Positions 5,437 through 28,293 of a stretch of DNA of 64,000 nt are shown here, in pieces. The DNA is from an uncultured Phycisphaeraceae bacterium (GTDB lineage Bacteria; Planctomycetota; B15-G4; JADJEK01), in contig CAZYQW010000032.1 of assembly GCA_964649825.1 (NCBI GenBank), positions 7,877 through 71,876 of the forward strand, given 5' to 3'. A program made the translations under genes and the position numbers. The notes beneath the pieces were generated by a model. The model saw only the letters and a list, made by a program, of their open reading frames with translations. It was not told the origin of the DNA and made no database searches. Position 1 is the stretch's first letter. Every line of letters begins with the position of its first letter.

Positions 5437-8400
5437 TCACTTCCGGCGTTTGCGGCGGCGTGAAGAAGGCTTCGCGGGCGCCTCCGGCGCACGCCGGGAC
5501 TCCGCAGCGGCGCTCGCTCGTCCCTCGCGGCGCCGTGCTCCGTCCTGTTCTCGTTCTTGGCTGGATTCCTGACCCGCCCCCTGACCTCGGGCGAGGCGGA
5601 ACCCGATGCTCGAGTTGCGGGCGCCGGGGGCGTTCGCGAGGCGGGACGCCGACCGGCAGATCCTCGCGAGATCGTTCCACGAGCCGCCGCGAAGCACCCG
5701 CCTCGAGCCCTCGGTCGGATTGCGCACGATCTCTCTCCCCGTCCAGTCCACGCGATCCACGCACCACTCCCAGACGTTCCCGATCATGTCGTACAGGCCG
5801 AACCCGTTCGGAGCCTTCCGAGCCACGGGATGGGTTCCCGCGCGCTTGTGATCGTACTGCTTCTTCGGCCAACCCCGGGAGTCCTCTCCATCCTCGAGCT
5901 CGAAGTCGACCCCGCTGTTCCCGCCGTACCAGGCGATGTCGTCGAGCACCGGATCGTCGTTATCGCCGCGGATCTCGAGCTCGCCCGCATACGTGCTCGT
6001 CGTCGTCCCCGCCCGGCAGGCGTACTCCCAATCGCGCTCGGCCGGCAGATGGCAACGCAATCCCGATGCCTTCGCGACCTTCTCGAAGAACGCCTTCGTG
6101 TCGTCCCAGGTCACCTGTTCGACCGGTCGCGTCGCCGAACGGAAACGGCTCGGGTTCTTGCCCATCACCGCCTGCCAAAGCTCCTGCGTGCACGGCGTCT
6201 CGCCGAGCCAGAAACCGGAGGGAACGATCTCCTCGCGGTGGTGCTCCCAGTCGTACCGCCCCACCTCCCCCTCCGGCGACCCCATCCAGAACCGCCCCGG
6301 CGGGATCCAGCGCATGCGGAACGACACGTCGTTCACCTCGATCTCCACCCAGAGGCCGAACCGGTCGCGGCCGATCGCGCGCGCCCACTCGGGCTTCGTG
6401 ATCGTGCCGGCATGCCAGTCGCCTTGGTCGGTCGCGATCGTGAAGCGACGCGCGACCCGGATCTCGGCGACCGGCGCGGACTCCGCGACGGCGCTCGCTC
6501 GTCCCTCGCGGCGCCGTGCTCCGTCCGGGCCGGTCGCCGGATCCGGCTCCCGACCTGGACCGGACTGCCCCTGACCTCGGGCGAGGCGGAACCCGATGCT
6601 CGAGATGCGGTCGCCGGGGGCGCTCGCGCTGCGGTACGCCGACCGGCAGAACCACGCGGACGCGAACCACGAGCCGCCGCGAAGCACCCGCTCCGAGCCT
6701 CTGGACGGCCCGGTCGGATCGACGGCCCGACCCGGCCCGTACTCGCCGAACCAATCCTGGCACCACTCCCACACGTTCCCGTGCATCTCGAACAGTCCCC
6801 ACGCGTTCGGCGGCAGCGATCCCACGCCCACCGTATGTTCCCGATACCGCCCCTTCGGGCCGTTCGCGTACGGGAAGTTCCCGTCGTAGTTCACGTCGTC
6901 GGGAGTCACGTTCGCGCCGAACGAGAACGGCGTCGTCGTGCCGGCGCGGCAGGCGCGGCAGGCGAACTCCCACTCGGCCTCGGTCGGCAGCCGCAGCTCG
7001 AGATCGGGGATCTCGCAGTTCACGGTCTGCACGAGACGCTGCGCGTCGTCCCAGCTCACCGAGTCGACCGGGCGCTGCGGACCCTTGAAGCGGCTCGGGT
7101 TCTTGTCCATCACCACTTGCCACAGCTCCTGCGTGACCGCGGTGTCGGCGATCCAGTAGCCGCGCGTCAGCGTGACCTCGTGCTGCGTTTCGTCGTCCCA
7201 CCGTTCCGCTTCGTCCTCCGGCGATCCCATCAGGAACGTCCCCGGCTCGATCCAGCGCATGCGCATGCGTACCCCGCGGATCTCGCAATCGGCCCAGATG
7301 CCGAACTCGTCCGCGCCCGACGCTACCGCCCACGAGGGCGTCGTCGACTCCACCCCGCGGTCGTCGAGCTTCGGGAGGGCGAGCGCTCTCGCCGCGTCGA
7401 TCGCCAGGCGCTGCGACGGCGCGCCGGCATCGTGGAGCACGAGCTCCGCGCCCGCCGCGGTGACGATCGCCAGCGCCGAGTCCTGCTCCTCCTCCAACCC
7501 GGCGCGCGGCACGACGAGACGCGGCGTGATCGTCCCCCCGCGTTGCTCGAGACGCCACGCGCGCGGGGCGGCTCGTTCGGGAGGCGTTGGTCTCCATCCC
7601 GGCGGCGGCTCCGCCGTATCGTCGATCGAGCGTTCGTACTTCTCGAACAGGCGCACGAACACGGGGCCGAACTCGTCGTGCGTCTTCAGCGCGGCCGGAA
7701 CGCGCACGCCGACTCGCCGCGACCAGTCGCCGAGGCCGGAGAGTTGCGGTGCATCTCGGGCCGCGACCCGGTTCAGGAACTCCAGCGCGGCCCGCACGTG
7801 CTCGGGGCTCGCGACGTCGGGGTCGCAGGCGAAGAGCGACATCGCCTCTTCGTGCTCGATCTCGCGCGGCGCGGCGGCGTGCCACTCGCGCATCAGGTCG
7901 GCGACGGCGCGCCGCTGCGCGAGCGCTTCTGATTTCCGCTCGACGCGAGCGAGCTCCTGCCAGTCGCGGTCGAGCGAGAGCGCGACGGCCGAGCTGCCGC
8001 CGACGGCGTCGTGCTGCCACGCGTCCACTTCGGTCGACGCGTCCGCCTCGTGCACGGTCAGCCGCAGCCGCACGGACCGCAGGAGCCCGGGCTCGACGCG
8101 CACGGCCGGCGCGAGCAGCCGCAAGAGCCGCAACGCGCGCAACTCGCGCTCGTCGAACGAGATGTCGTCGCCGTCCGATCGATCCCAGACCTGCGCGTTC
8201 CAGAGGTCGCGCGCGAAGCCAGGCCAGCGCGGGGTCGGGGCGGGGATCAGCGCGTGCAGGCGATGCCCGCGGCGCGCGAGCTCTTCGCCCCGGCGCCGCC
8301 ACGCGGCCTGCACGATCGGGCCGGCGTACGCGCCGAGGTCGCCGAGGAGGAGGACGGGGACGTGCGGCGGGGGCGGCCGCGGCGCTCCGCCCTCAGCGCC

Positions 8401-14894: not shown

Positions 14895-15012
14895 CGCCTG
14901 TGGCGACCCATCTTACGACTCCTCCCGCCTGACCCGTTGTCGTGGGTCAGAATCTGGAATAGACTCGCACTGCCGTTCCAAGCCTTCTCCTCTCTCCCAG
15001 GTGGAGCTCCCT

Positions 15013-16911
15013 ATGCAGCGTTCTCTCCCGATCGCCGGGCTGGCGATCCTCTGTTTTTCGACGACGCCGGCCACGGCCCAGCAGTTCACGGTCGACGGGA
15101 CGGCGCTTCCCGCGCAGAACATCTGGACCGACGGCGTCGCCTTCTCCGACGTCGACATGGACGGCTTCGTCGACATCCTGTTTGCCAATGGACAGGGTTA
15201 CGGCTCGGGCGGCGCCCTCCAGCAGCACCTCTTCATGAACCACTCGGGAGGAGTTCCCGGGAAGTTCTCCGCCGCGCACGGCAACCTGAACGTCGCCAAC
15301 TTCAACGCGAAGATGGTGATCGCCGAGGACTTCGACAACGACGGCGACCCCGACCTGATGTACGCGCCCGAGGGCCAGTTCCCGAGCCCCAACCAGACCC
15401 CGCGCATGCTGATCAACGACGGCACGGGGATGTTCGCCGATCAATCGGCGGCGCGGCTGCCGGCGGCCGGAATGGCCTCGTTCTGCGTCTGCGCCGGTGA
15501 CACGGACGACGACGGCGACCTCGACGTGGTCTTCACCGACGGAGCGACGTTCGGCGGCGTCGCGACGCAGGCGCGCCTGTACCAGAACAACGGCTCCGGC
15601 GTGTTCAGCAACGTGACCACGACGGCCCTCCCGGCCGACACGTACAACGCGCAGGACGTCACGCTCATCGACTGGGACAAGGACTTCGACCTCGACATCG
15701 CCCTGTCGGGCAAGGGCGCCACCAACAAGCGCGCGCGTCTCTATCTGAACAACGGCGCGGGGGTCTTCAGCATCTCGAACGCGCTCAACGCCCTCGGCAG
15801 CGGCGGTACGTACGAGATCGACTCCGGCGACCTCGACGGCGACGGCGATCCGGACGCGCTCACGCAGTCGATCTCGGGCTCGAGCGAGGGCTGGGGACGC
15901 AACGACGGCCCGACGACGACCGTCCCCGAGTTCACCTTCCCGTCCCCGAACGGCGACGACGACAACGAGATGGCCGGCCTCGACTACGACAACGACGGCG
16001 ACGTCGACGTCTTCGTCGGCTCGCTCGGGAACCGCGAGAAGGCGTATCGCAACAACGGCGGTGGATCGTTCACGAACGTGAACTCGATCATCCAGGCGCA
16101 GGACGACTCGACCCTCGACTTCGGGTTCGCGGACCTCGACAACGACGGCGACTACGACATGGTCACCGGTCAGGGCGAGTCGGGGAACTTCACGAACAAG
16201 GTCTACAAGAACGCTGGTCCGCGCGACAGTCAGCCACCGCGGCTCCTGGCGCTGCAGACGGCGCCGCCGCTCGCCGCGCCGCGGACGCCGTTCCACGTCA
16301 CCCTCCAGGACGCGATCGTCGACGACGGCAAGAGCTACCTGACGGTCGAGTACATCTTCGCGACCGACGATGGCGCAAACAGCACGTCGGGCAGCGGAAC
16401 CGCGCGCCACTCGGGCGGCGGCACGTTCCGTGCGCAGGTCGACACGCAGCTCAGCGTCAACTCGATCTCGCTGGCGTGGATCGCGCGCGATCCGGGTGGC
16501 AACGCGTCGGCGTTCGGGTCGGTCTCGGCCGGCGCGCCGAGCGCGTACACCGACCTCGGCAACGGGCTCGAGGGTCAGCGCGGGGTGCCGGTGCTCCTCG
16601 GCGTCGGCGCGCTCAAGCCGAGCACGCCTGGAATCCTGAAGCTCACGAAGGCGCGAGCGAACTCCCCGGCGTTCCTGCTGGTCGGGACGGCGGCGGGCAA
16701 CGTTCCGTTCATGGGCGGCGTCCTGGTCCCGTTCCCGGTGATCCTGCAGGTCAACCTCGCGACGAACGCAGAGGGCGAGATCACGCTGCCGTTCGTCTGG
16801 CCGGCCGCCGTCCCCTCCGGCACGAACGTCTTCCTCCAGACGCTCATCAGCGACGCGGCCGCGGTGCAGGGGTTCGCGTTCTCGAACGGCCTGCAGATGA
16901 CGTCGCCCTGA
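15013..16911 (+). CDS. Secreted FG-GAP/VCBS-repeat (integrin-alpha-like beta-propeller) protein carrying the shared C-terminal module.
   Basis: Signal peptide MQRSLPIAGLAILCFSTTPATA. Repeated D.D.DGD.D and FG..G motifs. AGGTGGAG RBS. C-terminus ...PFMGGVLVPFPVILQ...NVFLQTLISDAAAVQGFAFSNGLQMTSP. Confidence 0.85.
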   Translation: MQRSLPIAGLAILCFSTTPATAQQFTVDGTALPAQNIWTDGVAFSDVDMDGFVDILFANGQGYGSGGALQQHLFMNHSGGVPGKFSAAHGNLNVANFNAKMVIAEDFDNDGDPDLMYAPEGQFPSPNQTPRMLINDGTGMFADQSAARLPAAGMASFCVCAGDTDDDGDLDVVFTDGATFGGVATQARLYQNNGSGVFSNVTTTALPADTYNAQDVTLIDWDKDFDLDIALSGKGATNKRARLYLNNGAGVFSISNALNALGSGGTYEIDSGDLDGDGDPDALTQSISGSSEGWGRNDGPTTTVPEFTFPSPNGDDDNEMAGLDYDNDGDVDVFVGSLGNREKAYRNNGGGSFTNVNSIIQAQDDSTLDFGFADLDNDGDYDMVTGQGESGNFTNKVYKNAGPRDSQPPRLLALQTAPPLAAPRTPFHVTLQDAIVDDGKSYLTVEYIFATDDGANSTSGSGTARHSGGGTFRAQVDTQLSVNSISLAWIARDPGGNASAFGSVSAGAPSAYTDLGNGLEGQRGVPVLLGVGALKPSTPGILKLTKARANSPAFLLVGTAAGNVPFMGGVLVPFPVILQVNLATNAEGEITLPFVWPAAVPSGTNVFLQTLISDAAAVQGFAFSNGLQMTSP

Positions 16912-16953: not shown

Positions 16954-16991
16954 GCGGCCGCCACTCCTCGCGGAGGGGCGGCCGTCTTTTT
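16954..16991 (+). terminator. Rho-independent terminator candidate: gcggccgcc-loop-ggcggccg stem followed by a TCTTTTT run.
   Basis: Direct reading ~40 nt after the stop of the FG-GAP gene. Confidence 0.55.
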
Positions 16992-17033
16992 GGGTCGAGC
17001 CCCATCCGCCGGTCCGACGGGCCGTAAGGGTTC

Positions 17034-17176
17034 GCGTAAGAATAACTTCGCATCCACGCGCAGCAATCGCCGCCGAGGGCAAGGCGCGACGACGAAGCGT
17101 ATTGGTGGATACGCTGAGGAGGAGCAACGCAGCCATCGGCGGCGAGGGCAAGCGAGATGCGAAGTTATTCTTGCGC
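17034..17176. repeat. Copy 1 of a ~150-nt structured inverted-repeat element. Outer 21-bp stem gcgtaagaataacttcgcatc / gatgcgaagttattcttgcgc. Inner 9-bp stem tcgccgccg / cggcggcga. Conserved core GGCAAGGCGCGACGACGA...GCGTATT-N-ATACG...GAGGAGGAGCAACGCAGCCA.
   Basis: Direct reading. The conserved core is shared with a second copy at 26963-27122, and the stems differ in sequence between copies while remaining complementary. Confidence 0.5.
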
Positions 17177-17219
17177 GGGCCCTAACGTGGTGGAGCTCGG
17201 ACGGACCAGGAGTCGGGTC

Positions 17220-19457
17220 ATGATCGCGACACGGTGGACGTTTCACGCCCTGGCGGCGCTCTGCGTCGCAGCCCCGCCGGACGACGGACTCGAGCCGAAG
17301 CAGGATCCTCTCCCGTGGGAAGTGCGCGCCCATCGCGTCCTGCCGTGGCATCACGCGGCCGAGGTGCCGAACACCGAGACGCTCCTGATGAAGCTCGTCG
17401 CAGCGCAGCGGCTCGCCGCGTACTCGGAGGAGTGGACGGCCGAGGCCGTGGCCGCCGCGCCGTCGTTCGACGATTGCCTTGCCGAGGCGCGTCGCACGGG
17501 GCGGCTCCTCCTCTGGTACGTGCCGCACGTGCCCGGGCAGCACATGATCCTCCCGCACCTGCTCGACCGCTACGCGACGATCGGGCTCTTCTGCGACCCG
17601 GAGCTCGTGACCTTGATCACGCGCCGGTTCGTGGCCGTGAAGCTGCCGGCGGCGGGCGCGTGGGCGAAGCGGAACGGGATCGCCGCGCCCGACTTCCTCG
17701 AGCCGGGGCTGCTCGTGCTCGACGGCGAGGGACGGCCGCGGCTGCGCATGGATCGAATCAACACGTTCGACGCCGGCTACTTCCACCACGTGTTGCGCGA
17801 GCTGGCCGAGCATCACGGGGCGCGCAGCGACGGCCAGCGACGGGCCGAGACGGCGTGGGCGGAACGAAGCGATCGCGCGAACGGGATGGCGCTCGCGCGC
17901 GAATCGCTGAACGACGGCGCGCACGCGGCGGCGCGAGCCGCGCTCGAGGGGCTCGGCGACGCGGCCGGCGCCGAAGGCGAGTACCTCCACGCGATCCTCG
18001 CGCGCCGCGAGCACGACGTCGGCCGCGCCCTCGCGCATCTCGACCGCGCGCTGGCCCTCGACCCCGATGCCGGGTTGCGCTTCGACGTCCTCGTCGAGCG
18101 CGCGCTCCTCCATCTCCGCACCGGCGGGATCGACCGGGCCGCCAAGACGCTCGACGCGCTGGCGACCCTCGAGCCCGCCGGCGCCCGCGCGGCCGAGGCC
18201 GGATTCCTGCGCGCCGCGGCCCGGTACGCGTCGAAGGACGAGGACGCGGCGGTGGCGGCGTGGCGCGCGACGGCGGAGCGGTTCCCCGACGCGGCGTTCG
18301 GCGTGACGTCGGCTGCGTACGCGAAGCGCGGCAGCGACGAGGAGCTCGGCGAAGGCCCGCTGACGCGCAGCATGGCCGACGTACGTTGGCTCGCGAAGGA
18401 CGCGTACGCGCTCGGTCCGGATACGCAGTGGCGGCGGACGCGCGACGACGCCGACGACGTCGTGCGTCGCGGCATGGAGTTCCTGCTGCTCGCGCAGCGC
18501 TCGAACGGCTCCTGGCGCGGCCCGCGCTGGGGCGGCGGGCCCGAAGAGGCGGCCGACTCCGCCGCAACGGAGGCGAAAACGCGCAACGAGAACCTGCAGA
18601 TCGCGATCTCGGCCGTGGCCTGCGCGGCGCTCCACGCGTGGCGCGAGCGGATGCCGGACGCGGTCGACGCGGCGCTCGCGCGCGGCGAGGAGTTCCTGCT
18701 GCAGGACGACACGATCGAGCGCGGGGCGGCGGTGGCGTGGGTGTACGCCGACGTGTTCCGCGTGTGGCACTTCGCGCGGCGGCTCGCGACGCTCGGGCCC
18801 GAACGCCGCGCCGAGGCGATGGACGCGATCGCGCGGTGGGTCGATCAGCTCGTGGCGCAGCAGGATGAGACCGGCGGCGCGTTCCAGCACTTCGTCTACC
18901 GCTCGACCTTCGTCACGGCGGCGGTGACGTGGTGCCTCGCCGACGCGCGCGAGCTCGGCGTCGACGTCCCCGAGCGCGTCTTTCCGCGCGCGGCCGCGCT
19001 GCTCGAGTCGTGCCGCGGCGGCGACGCCGGGCTCTACGGCTACCTCACCGATGATCCGGCGGTGACGCGCTCGTTCGTGGGAGCCGCGTCGCGCCAGCCG
19101 CTGTGCGAATGGACGCTGTTCCGCTGCGGAGAGCGGACGCCGGCGCACCTCGACGCCGCGGTCGACCTCTACTTGGAGCACTACCACGCGGGGACGGAGA
19201 CGGCGCGCAAGGCGAACTTCCACGTTCCGTCGCTCGACCACCACGCGGGCTACTACTTCTTCCACAACTTCTATCCGACCTGCCGCGCCGCGAAGGACGG
19301 CGCGGACGGCGTCGCCGATCGCGCCGGCGAGCTGCTCGATCGGCTCTGCGAGCTGCCGGAGATCGACGGAACGTTCATCGACTCGGGGTTCAGCTACGGG
19401 AAGAGCTACGGCACCGCGATGGCGCTCCTGTCGATGAAGGAGCTGATGACGCCATGA
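17220..19457 (+). CDS. Secreted hypothetical protein. N-terminal thioredoxin-like region. C-terminal part has QW-type motifs (QRSNGSW, QQDETGGAF) suggesting a terpenoid-cyclase/prenyltransferase-like alpha-alpha toroid.
   Basis: Internal ATG at 17220 gives the signal peptide MIATRWTFHALAALCVAAPP. The track start 17157 lies inside the IR element. Long codon-biased frame. Confidence 0.7.
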   Translation: MIATRWTFHALAALCVAAPPDDGLEPKQDPLPWEVRAHRVLPWHHAAEVPNTETLLMKLVAAQRLAAYSEEWTAEAVAAAPSFDDCLAEARRTGRLLLWYVPHVPGQHMILPHLLDRYATIGLFCDPELVTLITRRFVAVKLPAAGAWAKRNGIAAPDFLEPGLLVLDGEGRPRLRMDRINTFDAGYFHHVLRELAEHHGARSDGQRRAETAWAERSDRANGMALARESLNDGAHAAARAALEGLGDAAGAEGEYLHAILARREHDVGRALAHLDRALALDPDAGLRFDVLVERALLHLRTGGIDRAAKTLDALATLEPAGARAAEAGFLRAAARYASKDEDAAVAAWRATAERFPDAAFGVTSAAYAKRGSDEELGEGPLTRSMADVRWLAKDAYALGPDTQWRRTRDDADDVVRRGMEFLLLAQRSNGSWRGPRWGGGPEEAADSAATEAKTRNENLQIAISAVACAALHAWRERMPDAVDAALARGEEFLLQDDTIERGAAVAWVYADVFRVWHFARRLATLGPERRAEAMDAIARWVDQLVAQQDETGGAFQHFVYRSTFVTAAVTWCLADARELGVDVPERVFPRAAALLESCRGGDAGLYGYLTDDPAVTRSFVGAASRQPLCEWTLFRCGERTPAHLDAAVDLYLEHYHAGTETARKANFHVPSLDHHAGYYFFHNFYPTCRAAKDGADGVADRAGELLDRLCELPEIDGTFIDSGFSYGKSYGTAMALLSMKELMTP

Positions 19458-23071: not shown

Positions 23072-23210
23072 CTGATACGTGGCCGGCAAGAGGCCATTCA
23101 CGCTGGTGTCGAACGTTTTTTGCACGGCTCGGCGCACATCGCGGCTCGAGCATGTCGGCGTGGCGAACGAGGGCTATCCTGTCCGAATCGATCAGAAGGA
23201 CCGAGGACCG

Positions 23211-26200
23211 ATGAGCCCGAGCCAAACGACGACGATCGACTTCGAGCGGGAGTTCGGCGTGAACGCCGCTTACGTCGAGACGCTCTACGAGCGCTGGCGG
23301 CAGGACCCGACGCGGGTCGAGCCCGAATGGCGGTCCTGGTTCGAACGATTGGCGAACGGATCGTCGAACGACGCGGCGGCGGCGGGCGCCACGGTTGCCC
23401 CGGTTGCCCCGGCGCAAGCCGCGCCCGACCGGACGGACTCGGCGCCGCCGCCGGCCGCGCCCGCGAAGCCGATCGCGCCCGCGATGGACGCCACGCGCGA
23501 GCGGCTGAAGGGGATCGCGAGGAAGATCGCCGAGAACATGATCGACAGCCTGACGGTGCCGACCGCCACTTCGGTGCGGACGGTGCCGGTGAAGGTGCTG
23601 ACCGAGAACCGGAGCATCCTGAACAACCACATGAAGGTGCGCGCGCTCGGCAAGGCGTCGTTCACCCATCTCATCGCGTTCGCGCTGGTCCGAGCCCTGA
23701 AGGCCCAGCCTCAGATGCAGGCGTTCTATGACGATGGGGACGATGGGGACGATGGGGACAAGGGAGCCGAGGGGCCCGAGCGGAAGGACGGCGGCGGACC
23801 GTTCAAGGTGACGCCGGCCCACGTGAATCTCGGGCTCGCGATCGACGTCGAGACAAGCTCGGGACGGACGCTCCTCGTGCCGAACGTCAAGCGCGCCGAG
23901 ACGCTCGGGTTCACGGAGTTCCGCGAGGCATACGAGGATCTCGTGCGCAGAGGCCGGGAGGGCAAGCTCGCGGCCTCGGACTTCGCGGGCACGACCGTCA
24001 CGCTCACCAACCCCGGCGGGCTCGGCACGCACATGAGCGTGCCGCGGTTGATGCGCGGCCAGGGCCTGATCATCGGCACCGGCTCGATCGGACTGCCGAC
24101 GCACGCGGCCGCGATGTCGCTGGCCACGCTCGGCGACCTCGCGATCGGGCCGGAGCTGACGATCACGAGCACCTACGATCACCGCGTCATCCAGGGCGCC
24201 GAGTCCGGGATCCTGCTGAAGCGCATCGATGACCTGCTCTGCGGCGAAGACGAGTTCTACGACGAGATCTTCCGTGCGATGCGCGTGCCGTGGCAACCGG
24301 TCCGCGCGGCCGTCGACACGCGTCCTGCACACGGGCGCGCGAGCGAAGAAGATCACGTCGCGAAGCAGGCGCGCGTCAACAAACTGATCAACGCGTACCG
24401 CAGCCGCGGCTGTCGGATCGCCGATCTCGATCCTCTCGAATACACGCCCGACCACCTGCCGTCGCTCGACCCGAGCGACTACGGCTTCACCATCTGGGAC
24501 CTCGATCGCGAGTTCGTCTGCGACGGGCTCGTCGGCAAGACGTCGATGCCGCTGCGCGACATCCTCTCGGTGCTGGCGAACACGTACTGCCGTCGCTGGA
24601 CGATCGAGTACATGCACATCACGAACCGCGAACGGAAGCACTGGATCCGCGATCGCGTCGAGCTGAAGCGCGACGACGAGGTGTTCGGCCTCGACGACCG
24701 GGAACGCATCCTGAAGCTGCTCTACCGCGCCGAGAACTTCGAGCGCTTCCTCCACACGCGCTACGTCGGCAACAAGCGCTTCTCGCTGGAGGGAGCGGAC
24801 ACGCTGATCCCGGCTCTGGCCGAGCTGATCGATCGCGCCGTTGGCGCGGGCGTCGAGAAGGTCGTGATCGGGATGGCGCATCGCGGTCGGCTGAACGTCC
24901 TCGCCAACATCTTGAACAAGTCGTACGACCGCATCTTCCGCGAGTTCGAGGGCGTGCTGCTGCCCATCTCGACGGAGGGTTCCGGGGACGTGAAGTACCA
25001 CCTCGGTCAGACCGGGGTCTTCACCACGCGCGGGGGCAAGCAGATCGACGTGATCCTCTCGGCGAACCCGAGCCACCTCGAGGCGGTCGATCCCGTCGTT
25101 TGCGGCATGACGCGCGGCTACCAGGACGCGCTCGGCGACGCCGACCGCACGCGAGTGCTCTCCGTCCTCATCCATGGCGACGCGGCGTTCGCCGGCCAGG
25201 GCGTGGTGGCGGAGACGCTGAACATGTCGAACCTGCCCGCGAACTTCTGCGGCGGCACGATCCACCTCGTCGTCAACAACCAGATCGGCTTCACGGCCGG
25301 GCCGCGCGACCTCCGTTCGACCTACTATTGCACCGACCTCGCGAAAGGGATCGAGGCGCCGATTCTTCACGCCAACGGCGACTACCCCGAGGCGGTGCTG
25401 AAGTCGGTGCACGTCGCGGTCGACTATCAGCGCGAGTTCCAGCGCGACGTGGTCATCGACATGGTCTGCTATCGGCGTTGGGGTCACAACGAGGGCGATG
25501 AGCCCGCGTACACGCAGCCCGTGCTCTACCGCCGCATCCAGAACCACCCGACCGTAACCGAGAACTACGTGCGCCTCCTCATCCGTCGCGGACAGCTCTC
25601 GCGCGAGCAGGCCGAGGAGATCGGCCAGCGCTTCAACGACGAGCTGAAGGACGCGCTCGATCGCTCCCGCGAGCCCGAGGAGAAGCAGAAGGAGCTTCCG
25701 CTCGAGGAGATCCTCGACGTCACCGACGACGACCCGCGCGATTACGCCGTCGAGCCGTCGCCCGAGACCGGCGTGGACGCTGAGCGGCTCATCGCGATCG
25801 TCGACGAGTGCAACACGATGCCCAAGGATCACACGGTGCACCCGAACCTGCTGCGTCAACTCCGCCGCCGCGAGCGGATGGTCCGCGGGGAGCAGGATCT
25901 CGATTGGGGCACGGCCGAGGCGATCGCGTTCGGCACGCTGCTGCAGGACGGCGTACCGATCCGCCTCAATGGACAGGACTCGGGCCGCGGCACGTTCAGC
26001 CAGCGCCATTCCGTCATCCGCGACCAGGCAAGCGGGGCCGACTACGTCCCGCTCGCCGACTTGAAGGACGCGAAGGCGACCTTCGAGGTGCATGACTCGT
26101 TCCTCTCCGAGGAGGCGGCCCTCGCGTTCGAGTTCGGCTACTCGGTCACGCGGCCTCGCGTGCTGACGATCTGGGAGGCGCAGTTCGGCGACTTCGCCAA

Positions 26201-26915
26201 CGGCGCGCAGATCCCGATCGATCAGTTCATCGTCTCGAGCGAGGCGAAGTGGCGGCAGCTCTCGGGCGTCGTGCTGCTCTTGCCGCACGGCTACGATGGT
26301 CAGGGGCCCGAGCACTCGAGCGGGCGGATCGAGCGCTTCCTGACCCAGTGCGCCGACGGCAACATGAGCGTCTGCAACTGCTCGACGGCCGCGCAATACT
26401 TCCACCTGCTGCGCCGCCAAGGGGTCGCCGATCCGAAGCGGCCCCTCGTCGTCTTCACACCGAAGAGCCTGCTGCGCGACCCGAGGGCCGCAAGCCCGAT
26501 CCACGAGCTGACCGAGGGTCGCTTCCGGGAGTTGATCGCCGACGCCGCGGCCGATCCAGCGACCACCAAGCGCCTGCTCCTCTGCTCCGGCAAGCTCTAC
26601 CACGAGCTCGCCCAGCATCGCGAGGAGCACGGCCACGACGACGTGGCGATCGCGCGGCTCGAGCAGCTCTATCCCTTCCCGCGCGATCAAGTCCGAGCGG
26701 AGATCGAACGGCTGTCGCCCGACCGAGTCGTCTGGTGCCAGGAGGAGCCGAAGAACATGGGCCCGTTCTCGTTCGTCCTCCAGCGCGGTCTGGACATGGG
26801 CGTCGACGTCGCATACGCCGGACGCCCCGTATCGGCGAGCCCCGCGACGGGGTCGTACAAGCGGCACAACGCGGAGCAGGAATACCTCGTGAAGAAAGCG
26901 TTCGCGGAGACGTGA
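23211..26915 (+). CDS. sucA: Multifunctional 2-oxoglutarate dehydrogenase E1 component of the Kgd/OdhA type, 1234 aa: an N-terminal E2-like acyltransferase domain (DHRVIQGAESG) fused to the E1 TPP-dependent dehydrogenase.
   Basis: Track ORF with an internal ATG at 23211 (MSPSQTTTIDFEREFGVNAAYVETLYERW). It contains the E2 catalytic DHR..G motif followed by E1 motifs (GMAHRGRLNVL, TGGK, HGDAAFAGQGVV, RRWGHNEGDEP). Confidence 0.9.
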   Translation: MSPSQTTTIDFEREFGVNAAYVETLYERWRQDPTRVEPEWRSWFERLANGSSNDAAAAGATVAPVAPAQAAPDRTDSAPPPAAPAKPIAPAMDATRERLKGIARKIAENMIDSLTVPTATSVRTVPVKVLTENRSILNNHMKVRALGKASFTHLIAFALVRALKAQPQMQAFYDDGDDGDDGDKGAEGPERKDGGGPFKVTPAHVNLGLAIDVETSSGRTLLVPNVKRAETLGFTEFREAYEDLVRRGREGKLAASDFAGTTVTLTNPGGLGTHMSVPRLMRGQGLIIGTGSIGLPTHAAAMSLATLGDLAIGPELTITSTYDHRVIQGAESGILLKRIDDLLCGEDEFYDEIFRAMRVPWQPVRAAVDTRPAHGRASEEDHVAKQARVNKLINAYRSRGCRIADLDPLEYTPDHLPSLDPSDYGFTIWDLDREFVCDGLVGKTSMPLRDILSVLANTYCRRWTIEYMHITNRERKHWIRDRVELKRDDEVFGLDDRERILKLLYRAENFERFLHTRYVGNKRFSLEGADTLIPALAELIDRAVGAGVEKVVIGMAHRGRLNVLANILNKSYDRIFREFEGVLLPISTEGSGDVKYHLGQTGVFTTRGGKQIDVILSANPSHLEAVDPVVCGMTRGYQDALGDADRTRVLSVLIHGDAAFAGQGVVAETLNMSNLPANFCGGTIHLVVNNQIGFTAGPRDLRSTYYCTDLAKGIEAPILHANGDYPEAVLKSVHVAVDYQREFQRDVVIDMVCYRRWGHNEGDEPAYTQPVLYRRIQNHPTVTENYVRLLIRRGQLSREQAEEIGQRFNDELKDALDRSREPEEKQKELPLEEILDVTDDDPRDYAVEPSPETGVDAERLIAIVDECNTMPKDHTVHPNLLRQLRRRERMVRGEQDLDWGTAEAIAFGTLLQDGVPIRLNGQDSGRGTFSQRHSVIRDQASGADYVPLADLKDAKATFEVHDSFLSEEAALAFEFGYSVTRPRVLTIWEAQFGDFANGAQIPIDQFIVSSEAKWRQLSGVVLLLPHGYDGQGPEHSSGRIERFLTQCADGNMSVCNCSTAAQYFHLLRRQGVADPKRPLVVFTPKSLLRDPRAASPIHELTEGRFRELIADAAADPATTKRLLLCSGKLYHELAQHREEHGHDDVAIARLEQLYPFPRDQVRAEIERLSPDRVVWCQEEPKNMGPFSFVLQRGLDMGVDVAYAGRPVSASPATGSYKRHNAEQEYLVKKAFAET

Positions 26916-26962
26916 TCGTTCGCGCGGCGAGCGAACGACGACCGAACCGGAAGGTCGGCGCT

Positions 26963-27122
26963 AGTGGTGTGATTCAGATTGTTGGTGGATGATCCGGAGG
27001 TCATCGTCGTCGCTGGCAAGGCGCGACGACGACCGCGTATTCGAGATACGTCGAGGAGGAGCAACGCAGCCAGCGACGACGAGGGCCCCGGAGAAACGTC
27101 AACAACTCTGAATCACACCACT
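26963..27122. repeat. Copy 2 of the structured inverted-repeat element. Outer stem agtggtgtgattcagattgttg / caacaactctgaatcacaccact. Inner stem tcgtcgtcg / cgacgacga. Same conserved core as copy 1. It sits between the 3' ends of convergent genes and overlaps the stop codon of the 27121..28293 gene.
   Basis: Direct reading. The core is ~85% identical to copy 1; the outer and inner stems differ from copy 1 but remain complementary. Confidence 0.5.
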
Positions 27123-28293
27123 ACATGCCGAAGCGGATCTCGAGGCCCCGCGACGAGGACACGCCTTGCGCGGCCCCGGGGTCGGACTGCAGACCTTGGA
27201 TGTACAACCTCGCGCCGCACAGGAGCGGATCGTTCGGAATCGTCGTGGAAATCACGAATCCGGAGCCGGGCAACGGGAGCGCCATCGCGACGATCGGGAC
27301 GAGAAGGAGGTCCCCGCCCCAGAAGCCGGGAATCGACGCCGGACTCGATCCCATGAGGAGCAGGACCTGAGTGGCCGTGCCCGACGAGTTCCCGACGCCG
27401 AGCGTCACGAGCGCATTGATGAGGGGTATGCCGTTCAAGACGAGGGACGGGACACCGGTCGTTCCGGGGACGCCGTCGCCGTAATGTCTCGACGTCGCCA
27501 CGCACGGGCTCACGAACTCGGCGCCCCGCAGCTCGGAGTACCCCGATCCCCCGATCAACGTCTGCGTGCCGGTCGTCGCGTCGATCGAGAACAACTTGTG
27601 ACGCCCGCCGATGATCGTGCCGTCCGAGCGCGCGGCGAGGAACTGGACGAGGCCGCCGCCGTCCGCGCCGACCGTGGGGTTGACGTCCGTCGCCGCGCCC
27701 GTGAAGAGGTCGATGGTCAAGAGGCCGTCGCCGAATGCACCGAGCCCGATGTCCCACGCGTAGAGCGTTCCGTCCGGCGCAAACGCGAGTCCCTGGATGC
27801 CGGGGAAGCCCGTGGCACCGACCTTCAGCAGCGCGTTCGTCGCGACGTCGTACGTCCATAGCTCGTCCGGGTCGCCGTCGACGACGAGATGGAAGAGCCC
27901 GTTCACATCGATCGCCATCGCGCGCACGTCCTTGGCGACCGTGACGACGGGAGTGCCGACTCCGGTCGACGGATCGACGGTGATGATCGTGAATCCGGCG
28001 CTGGCGTAGATCGTTCCCGTGACGTCGACCGCCATTGCGTTGATCGCGACGAAGCCGGTCGGTCCGATGAGCGCGCCCGCGCCGGTCGTCGAGTCGATCG
28101 CGAACGCTTGCCCGTTCCACGTGACGCCCACCATGTCCTGAGCCGACGCACGCGCGGCCACGAGCGCCGACAGCAAGACCAGGAACCGGCGCACCGGTGC
28201 TGCCGCCGCCCTCGCCGATCGGCGGGATCGACGACGTCGAGCTCGTTCGATTCTCGAGGCGCCGATGATCGGAGCGGCGTGCGACGAGATCAT
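27121..28293 (-). CDS. Secreted beta-propeller-like protein (~390 aa) carrying the shared C-terminal module (...CGARLYIQGLQSDPGAAQGVSSSRGLEIRFGM).
   Basis: Internal ATG at 28293 with a GGAGGGA RBS. Arg-rich n-region signal (MISSHAAPIIGASRIERARRRRSRRSARAAAAPVRRFLVLLSALVAARASA), possibly Tat-type. Confidence 0.8.
   Translation of the reverse strand: MISSHAAPIIGASRIERARRRRSRRSARAAAAPVRRFLVLLSALVAARASAQDMVGVTWNGQAFAIDSTTGAGALIGPTGFVAINAMAVDVTGTIYASAGFTIITVDPSTGVGTPVVTVAKDVRAMAIDVNGLFHLVVDGDPDELWTYDVATNALLKVGATGFPGIQGLAFAPDGTLYAWDIGLGAFGDGLLTIDLFTGAATDVNPTVGADGGGLVQFLAARSDGTIIGGRHKLFSIDATTGTQTLIGGSGYSELRGAEFVSPCVATSRHYGDGVPGTTGVPSLVLNGIPLINALVTLGVGNSSGTATQVLLLMGSSPASIPGFWGGDLLLVPIVAMALPLPGSGFVISTTIPNDPLLCGARLYIQGLQSDPGAAQGVSSSRGLEIRFGM

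Follow-up and report, generated by a model that had tools for sequence, protein, structure and literature searches.

The window, a 64-kb stretch of DNA, harbors two hairpin elements of 155 and 158 nt that are without coding capacity and are almost certainly MITEs. Taken as a whole, the explanation that fits best, and which we regard as probable, is that of two MITEs with interchangeable ends around a shared inner module. Both copies would be moved only by a transposase encoded elsewhere that binds their TIRs: copy 1 would have inserted at TAA via ISAzo13-family ends, duplicating TAA, and copy 2 at TA via IS630-like ends, with duplication of TA. This would amount to trans-mobilization by DDE transposases that recognize the terminal repeats and insert the element at TWA or TA, a mechanism of movement that is well supported. 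The inner module of ~90–110 nt, common to both copies, would be the unit conserved across a superfamily that spans ~15 phyla.

Extent and ends of the two copies

Both inverted-repeat copies lie where a reading of the sequence alone had placed them and fold as stable hairpins (copy 1, a rod of −95.8 kcal/mol, z −11.2 against 200 shuffles; copy 2, −97.5 kcal/mol, z −10.9). For the whole elements, the RNA MFE is −102.4 kcal/mol on the plus strand versus −85.6 kcal/mol on the minus strand in copy 1, and −93.9 versus −85.5 kcal/mol in copy 2. Copy 1 forms a rod-like hairpin at positions 17028–17182 on the plus strand; its earlier delimitation to 17034–17176, with a 21-bp outer stem and one G-U position, proved too short, as the outer stem (GGGTTCGCGTAAGAATAACTTCGCATC) comprises 27 bp with three G-U positions. 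The left TIR, GGGTTCGCGTAAGAATAACTTCGCATC (17028–17054, plus strand), and the right TIR, GATGCGAAGTTATTCTTGCGCGGGCCC (17156–17182, plus strand), are flanked by identical TAA trinucleotides at 17025–17027 and 17183–17185, which form the TSD. Between the TIRs, all on the plus strand, lie the two sides of an inner stem (17067–17075 pairing with 17137–17145), the 5′ half of the core (17078–17095), an apical hairpin AGCGTAT-TGGTGG-ATACGCT (17096–17115) and the 3′ half of the core (17116–17135). The apical hairpin is also present in inspected relatives, varying in sequence and length, and that of copy 1 recurs in a 180/197-nt ISAzo13-type subfamily.

The surroundings of copy 1 contain two further features. 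The ATG at 17157 falls inside its right arm, as previously reported. Another in-frame ATG is located at 17220, outside copy 1, with AGGAG 7 nt upstream. Compared with ATG 17157, the one at 17220 is the more plausible start. Upstream of the element, a terminator-like hairpin with a T-run is visible by eye at 16957–16992. A Rho-independent terminator had been proposed here; its hairpin and T-run stand, with only weak matches to terminator parts of sRNA models and no call by a simple terminator scan. The elements themselves were rejected as intrinsic terminators, because a T-run is absent after either copy; the terminator scan called neither of them, and a promoter scan found no promoter-like site for the elements.

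A metagenome scan with the terminal repeat of copy 1, GGGYYCGCGYAAGAAKWACTTC, a pattern that its left TIR fits, retrieved more than 120 loci. These include 66 distinct short elements of 147–239 nt, and perfect 3-bp TSDs are present in 39 of the 66 sister elements, with ~1 expected by chance (TTA in 21, TAA in 15, and TGA, TTG and AAA in one each). Repeats of the copy 1 type also bound a 1918-bp IS (locus L243), the second ORF of which matches Pfam DDE_Tnp_ISAZ013 (E 8e-108). The ends of copy 1 are identical to those of this ISAzo13-family IS at 18–22 of 24 bases (left TIR, 18–21; reverse complement of the right TIR, 19–22). Homologous transposases with 48–63% identity are encoded at six further loci from the same scan, and in the three of them that were checked (L215, L141 and L209) the repeat abuts the end of the transposase gene. 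L183 carries a 990-bp deletion derivative. Plasmid homologs of the transposase are labeled “ISAzo13 family transposase” in RefSeq, and annotated ISAzo13 members in Streptomyces and Nostoc display G-starting ends and TTA/TAA duplications. Copy 1 shows what defines an ISAzo13-type MITE: its ends start with G and contain the AAGAATAACTT motif, and its TSD is a 3-bp TWA. It shares with ISAzo13-family ISs the first base of its ends, a 3-bp TSD of the TTA/TAA kind and most end bases. Unlike copy 1, however, these ISs encode a transposase, and the inner 100 nt of copy 1 are unrelated to the IS interior. The elements are non-autonomous, and neither the window nor any of the 106 genome loci listed yielded a transposase homolog.

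Copy 2 was correctly placed by the sequence-only reading (26963–27122), and its limits are corrected here to 26964–27121 on the plus strand, a 158-nt element flanked by TA on either side. Its ends read GTGGTGTGATTCAG.../...CTGAATCACACCAC, its terminal repeats span ~24 bp, and the entire element scores 90.6 bits with covariance model R1. The core, consisting of two halves with exact matches and an apical hairpin, covers 27015–27072 on the plus strand. The TA at 26962–26963, matched by that at 27122–27123, is a putative 2-bp TSD that cannot be separated from the inverted repeat in one copy, because TA is palindromic. The TA-type repeat CTAGTGTCCTGAGTCAGAAGTTCG corresponds to the termini of ISs annotated as IS630-family, and an IS630-family IS in a Mycobacterium plasmid reads C-TA-GTGTCCTGAGTCA...TGACTCAGGACAC-TA-G. 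Identity to IS630-family IS ends amounts to 11–13 of 24 bases for copy 2 and 17–18 of 24 for close relatives of copy 2 that harbor the same core. Judged by these comparisons, the ends of copy 2 appear IS630-like, a weaker match than that of copy 1 to ISAzo13. IS630-family ISs share with the copy 2 group the TA duplication, a CTAG-like target preference and GTG-starting ends. A MITE of the IS630 family is known in S. pneumoniae, the RUP element. The transposases of the ISAzo13 and IS630 families display weak similarity to each other in the DDE region (E 0.001). A predicted empty site of copy 2 gave 0 matches in the metagenome scan, and no autonomous partner was found via extra terminal-repeat copies within the 106 genome loci listed. 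When both copies were compared with plasmids by blastn, matches were absent or attributable to chance. At locus L014, a pair of inverted copies separated by 4.6 kb turned out to enclose housekeeping genes.

The elements had been described as atypical of MITEs. TIRs and TSDs are present, which is the very outcome that the same reading had named as speaking against its view, and we therefore abandon that description.

The shared core and its distribution

The core halves GGCAAGGCGCGACGACGA (17078–17095 and 27015–27032) and GAGGAGGAGCAACGCAGCCA (17116–17135 and 27053–27072) are 100% identical between the two copies, and neither is present a third time in the 64-kb window. In copy 1 they can be written as GGC-AA-GGCG-CGACGACGA and GAGGAGGAG-CAA-CGCA-GCCA, with 0.01 chance matches expected for the 3′ half. 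A covariance model run with filters off found no third copy in the window. The inner stems, TCGCCGCCG/CGGCGGCGA in copy 1 and TCGTCGTCG/CGACGACGA in copy 2, are distinguished by two double compensatory changes, and the outer stems are unrelated sequences. A conserved core between differing yet complementary inner stems, as originally noticed, is hence confirmed; the ~85% identity ascribed to it is too high, since we measured 79% over the inner 91-nt module and a mean column identity of 77% over the whole alignment of the copies. The accompanying claim of covariation that keeps structure holds for the inner stems, the only place with true compensatory change. It fails for the outer stems, which are the inverted repeats of two transposon families; they constitute different transposase-binding ends and therefore do not reflect compensatory evolution of one helix.

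A scan for the core pattern GCGCGACGACGA-N8-38-GAGGAGGAGCAACGC, using one genome per species, returned at least 106 loci. Among the matches listed, the core is carried by ~15 phyla, with several copies per genome; some of these phylum assignments may be binning errors, because most genome matches stem from metagenome-assembled genomes. Listed carriers comprise Acidobacteriota, Myxococcota, Thermodesulfobacteriota, Nitrospirota, Planctomycetota, Gemmatimonadota, Eisenbacteria, Binatia, Methylomirabilota, Acidimicrobiales, Beta- and Gammaproteobacteria, Spirochaetes, Elusimicrobia, Omnitrophota and CPR lineages, and include the cultured isolates Pelomonas, Roseateles and Paucibacter as well as closed chromosomes. 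Most listed matches are complete palindromic elements of 152–175 nt (median 164). Their TIRs were located by seed-based detection, as MFE folding of whole flanks over-extends hairpins in GC-rich DNA. The relatives end either in C-TA-GTG...CAC-TA-G or in 3-bp direct repeats (TCA, TGA or TTA, all non-palindromic) beside G-starting ends. The 5′ half of the core is invariant in all 101 aligned relatives, which were chosen by that pattern, and the exact conservation of the core in genome matches is in part a product of a search that required it. CAAGGCG is kept in elements chosen by their ends only. Rfam gave 0 matches at the gathering score for the window and eight loci, and only noise at E ≤10 for the region. 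In the literature covered, full-text searches found no paper with the core or terminal-repeat strings, and a scan of IMG/VR with the 17-mer of the 5′ half-core produced 14 chance matches in coding sequence and no elements.

Of 100 metagenome loci, 39 contain the core by covariance-model match, in every case within a short element, and the IS-bearing loci of this set gave no match. The core is not IS-derived. The inner 91 nt of copy 1 are 78–83% identical to those of IS630-type elements and 65–74% identical to those of other ISAzo13-type elements. Moreover, betaproteobacterial elements of ~240 nt contain the same module inside a further kind of end. Module and ends form a mosaic: the same module is combined with several kinds of ends, so the two have recombined.

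Structure of the core and its possible roles

The core is itself asymmetric. In the model that we favor, it would comprise, from the outside inwards, the outer stem, an AA bulge, a short GGCG:CGCN helix and, across from this strand, a CAA bulge; next would come a C-G pair with tandem G.A/A.G after it, a unit present three times, and lastly the variable apical hairpin. In the same reading, the 3′ half of the core would face CGACGACGA as C-G pairs split by tandem G.A/A.G mismatches. A variant core (e.g. L178, CGAGGAC / AAGGACGAG) keeps the G.A pairs and flips the middle Watson–Crick pair from C:G to G:C. Within the 101 core regions, the basal stem, whose columns include the inner stem of copy 1, is paired at 89.7%; shuffles give 66.9%, and slid registers do not exceed 53%. 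The covariation score reaches 0.54 versus 0.15 in shuffles. All 13 basal-stem pairs vary, 12 of them on both sides, and 420 cells are changed on both sides of the stem compared with 166 in shuffles. That structure is conserved beyond sequence, as had been proposed from the two copies, is thereby substantiated.

The arms are strand-specific as well. Folding of the arms with the core masked favors the core strand in 52 of 58 elements (mean −11.5 kcal/mol), and G-U pairs number 214 on the core strand versus 83 on the opposite one. The ends-only set likewise favors the core strand (32 of 33 elements; G-U pairs 143 versus 52), a weaker replication because its elements are closely related to each other. 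Composite elements with two modules, one per strand, exist in Omnitrophota, CPR lineages and Acidobacteriota, which fits a single-stranded function working on whichever strand is exposed. Strand-specific pairing points to a single-stranded form, RNA or DNA. Given the G-U-rich strand-specific pairing, the sequence-specific purine loops and the two-strand composites, we infer that the core probably functions as a single strand, RNA being the likeliest. The module would then work when the element is transcribed, forming a long rod, imperfectly paired and with non-canonical loops rich in purines, that may serve as a protein-binding or processing determinant; processing is suggested by analogy to RNase III, which acts on the hairpins of Correia elements of Neisseria. 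We consider a role of the core at the RNA level quite possible, if somewhat short of an even chance.

A credible alternative, though to our mind an unlikely one, places the function of the core in DNA architecture, as a flexible central hinge or cruciform nucleation site that would pair both TIRs for the transposase in an element of ~160 bp. The core is always central, the length is tightly held at 152–175 nt, and a single module serves two transposase families, which argues for a physical role independent of the transposase. Folds with DNA parameters likewise favor the core strand. Long Correia forms, furthermore, contain an 82-nt insert with an IHF site (PMC2649163) at the position that corresponds to the apical hairpin of the core, and this central IHF site has been proposed to bring the ends together. 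The excess of G-U (in DNA, G-T) pairs in both element sets, however, translates into A.C mismatches on the other strand and penalizes a two-armed cruciform, and sequence conservation in the purine loops exceeds what a hinge needs.

The recurrence of the same module within ISAzo13-type, IS630-type and other ends could also be explained if the module were a separate small mobile element nested in the centers of other palindromic MITEs. This is very unlikely: direct repeats or sharp shared module edges are missing and similarity fades gradually toward the ends, no “naked” module without outer arms occurs in ~1.2 Mb of loci, and the rod is continuous with a constant total length.

It is similarly hard to maintain that the element is a free-standing structured ncRNA or a cis-regulatory RNA of adjacent genes, a reading to which we assign little probability. 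The very stable fold, the covariation, the strand specificity and the position of copy 1 in front of a gene would suit it. Yet TSDs and the match of the TIRs to IS ends largely refute it, and many copies per genome lie beside unrelated genes. Using a crude gene caller, we counted 16 elements co-oriented and 19 anti-oriented to neighboring genes, in layouts that were convergent in 21 cases versus divergent in 8. Such apparently random orientation speaks against a regulatory RNA, and the lack of an orientation bias weakens a simple cis role on mRNA; nor did Rfam yield a family for the element, whether at the gathering score or with the cutoff relaxed to E ≤10. Among known RNA motifs, hammerhead or other small ribozymes and SRP domain IV were rejected by motif comparison, with no three-way junction present, and a k-turn because bulge and G.A pairs follow each other in the wrong order. 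Motif comparison also spoke against a ribosome-binding site serving an internal ORF, since no suitably spaced start codon accompanies GAGGAGGAG.

A site for single-stranded DNA recombination or transposition, of the REP/REPIN (RAYT) or integron attC kind, would share the strand-specific hairpin and the conservation of structure over sequence, but is extremely improbable in view of the non-palindromic 3-bp TSDs, the DDE-type IS-end match, the conserved sequence at the hairpin tip rather than at the base as in attC, the missing GTAG-type REP motif and the absence of a RAYT or integrase gene near the few loci with genes inspected. Motif comparison rejected attC sites and REPs as well.

Relation to Correia elements and other palindromic repeats

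Correia elements (CE/CREE/NEMIS) are rod-forming MITEs of ~105–157 bp with long TIRs and TA duplication. For comparison, we used Correia elements drawn from Neisseria-type prophage contigs and two covariance models built without Neisseria sequences, R1 and the broader R2. R1 matches 11 Correia elements, all on the same strand, with 15–23.5 bits, the best window background being 15.9 bits. R2 aligns a short Correia element colinearly with 32.6 bits (E 1.6e-6, a rough value as for all covariance-model E-values); for the others, the models give 15–24 bits. In the alignment, the left repeat stem is immediately followed by CAAGGCG and the right one immediately preceded by GCAACGC. The inner order of Correia elements is colinear with the core: stem, CAAGGCG, purine-rich strand, apical hairpin or insert, purine-rich strand, GCAACGC, stem. 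The core strand is slightly more stable in all nine Correia elements compared (9/9), and one relative of the window copies, L047, ends in TAGTGGATTGTAAC, close to the Correia sequence TAGTGGATTAAC. The Correia repeat strings were confirmed in published texts and also occur in a 1987 gonococcal paper.

Correia elements differ from the window copies in several respects. They are AT-rich and, in the literature consulted, discussed only for Neisseria, their 26-bp repeat TATAGTGGATTAA(C/A)... is fixed whereas the window copies have other ends, and their core is degenerate and without the triple CGA/GAG helix. The TSD of copy 1 has 3 bp compared with 2 bp in Correia elements. No transposase is encoded by Correia elements, and the mechanism that mobilizes them is not established (PMC2649163). 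RNase III acts on the transcribed Correia hairpin, and an IHF site and promoters are located in the element (PMC2649163; PMC10969869; PMC2229807). Only in Correia elements have RNase III cleavage, promoters and IHF binding been demonstrated. The REPIN paper checked contains no link between RAYT and Correia elements. Judged from the sequence comparisons, and as part of the overall explanation that we consider probable, the Neisseria Correia elements would be a degenerate member of the core superfamily.

A more far-reaching proposal, which we put forward as doubtful, is that the true unit of evolution is the ~90–110-nt rod, tandem G.A helix and bulge-helix-bulge-like motif included: a pan-bacterial structured “chassis” that acts single-stranded, probably as RNA, and endures by swapping TIRs so as to use any IS630- or ISAzo13-type transposase at hand, with Correia elements as a degenerate offshoot. 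If so, Correia elements would be moved by an IS630-like transposase and the core would bind a host factor common to most bacteria. MITEs are usually regarded as decayed ISs with a junk interior. Here, the interior is the most conserved part, nearly base for base over ~15 phyla, in a strand-specific rod combined with two transposase families. Were our interpretation true, it would define a candidate widespread structured RNA/DNA module carried by transposons, offer a route to annotating the unexplained hairpin repeats that number thousands in GC-rich genomes and metagenome-assembled genomes, make spurious start codons such as ATG 17157 recognizable via element annotation, and provide a testable lead on the origin of Correia elements and the enzyme that moves them.

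Other bacterial palindromic repeats, ERIC/IRU among them, are likewise intergenic, ~100–200 nt long and carry TA termini. Transcripts of ERIC/IRU form long hairpins with an effect on the fate of mRNA (PMC2229807). These families are confined to narrow taxa, and no sequence relationship to the window copies was seen. A formal parallel to the two kinds of ends is found in plants. Stowaway (TA) and Tourist (TAA/TTA) MITEs are distinguished by 2-bp versus 3-bp TWA duplications and rely on different DDE transposases acting in trans; we know of no conserved structured core common to both. Like the window copies, they represent two MITE classes split by TA versus TWA TSDs, but they are eukaryotic.

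Architecture of core-bearing elements and ISAzo13-type variants

The conserved inner hairpin module of copy 1 (the core) recurs in elements of different size and ends among the genome loci recovered by the exact-core scan (L001–L106). Composite elements of ~280 nt, bounded by TA|CTGAG...CTCAG|TA, were identified on the minus strand of L074 (3500-3777), as well as in L063, L078, L101, L038, L009, and L014, with hosts belonging to Omnitrophota, CPR lineages, and Elusimicrobia. Each composite element carries two core hairpins, one per strand, and the purine strands of the second hairpin are interchanged relative to the loop in L074 and L101. Betaproteobacterial elements of ~240 nt with the ends AACCTAGAAACGGCAGTTGG (L003, L033, L036, L043, L054, L061, L085, L087, L091, and L096) harbor the same core hairpin in their left half, together with an additional conserved hairpin, CTCACCC-AAT-GGGTGAG. 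In L102, whose core occupies 6617-6664 on the minus strand, a bare repeat-to-repeat palindrome, CTAGTGTCCTGACTCAGGACACTAG, is located ~70-100 nt upstream of that core. It immediately adjoins another element and could represent an element reduced to its minimum or the footprint of an excision.

Metagenome loci retrieved with the terminal repeat of copy 1 contain a 180/197-nt subfamily with ISAzo13-type ends (L149, L152, L161, L162, L167, L179, L187, and L199). These elements retain the apical hairpin of copy 1 (AAGCGTAT-TGGTCG-ATACGCT). In place of the CAAGG/ACGC core on either side of it, they have GCGAATCC/GGAATTCGC together with GATTGAG direct repeats. A further locus, L183, harbors a 990-bp ISAzo13-family element with an internal deletion (8-998), whose ORF fuses the orfA N-terminus to the final ~55 transposase residues. 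This element is an intermediate between a full IS and a MITE.

Position of the elements relative to coding sequences

In many of the genome loci L001–L106, a neighboring gene has an ORF whose end falls no more than a few bases from the terminus of the element, and core-to-ORF distances cluster at 53-58 nt, approximately one arm length. This pattern suggests insertion into or beside stop codons, from which most TA/TWA sites in GC-rich genomes derive.

In the window, the ATG at 17157, used as a start codon, indeed lies within the right arm of copy 1 (17156-17182), as the sequence-only reading had noted. An alternative ATG at 17220 is in the same frame, outside the MITE, and preceded by AGGAG 7 nt upstream; translation from it would yield an N-terminus resembling a signal peptide (MIATRWTFHALAALCVAAPP). 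The start at 17157 is probably an over-extension of the ORF caused by MITE insertion. Downstream of the FG-GAP-repeat gene (15001-16911), a GC-rich hairpin followed by TCTTTTT (16957-16992) has the appearance of an intrinsic terminator. It gives weak matches to the terminator portions of sRNA models, but was not called by a simple terminator scan. The window further encodes a 1278-aa protein (23079-26915) in which an E2 (2-oxoacid acyltransferase) domain is fused to the E1 domains of 2-oxoglutarate dehydrogenase, an architecture resembling actinobacterial OdhA/Kgd.

Possible relationship of the ISAzo13 and IS630 transposases

The transposase of the ISAzo13-family IS at L243 (1646-2539), whose ends resemble those of copy 1, is weakly similar to the IS630 transposase at L263 (1604-2686) across the catalytic region, with 23% identical residues in a 111-aa alignment (E 0.001), and the ISAzo13 ORF faintly matches a Tc3-type HTH. 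These similarities hint that the ISAzo13 and IS630 families are distant relatives.
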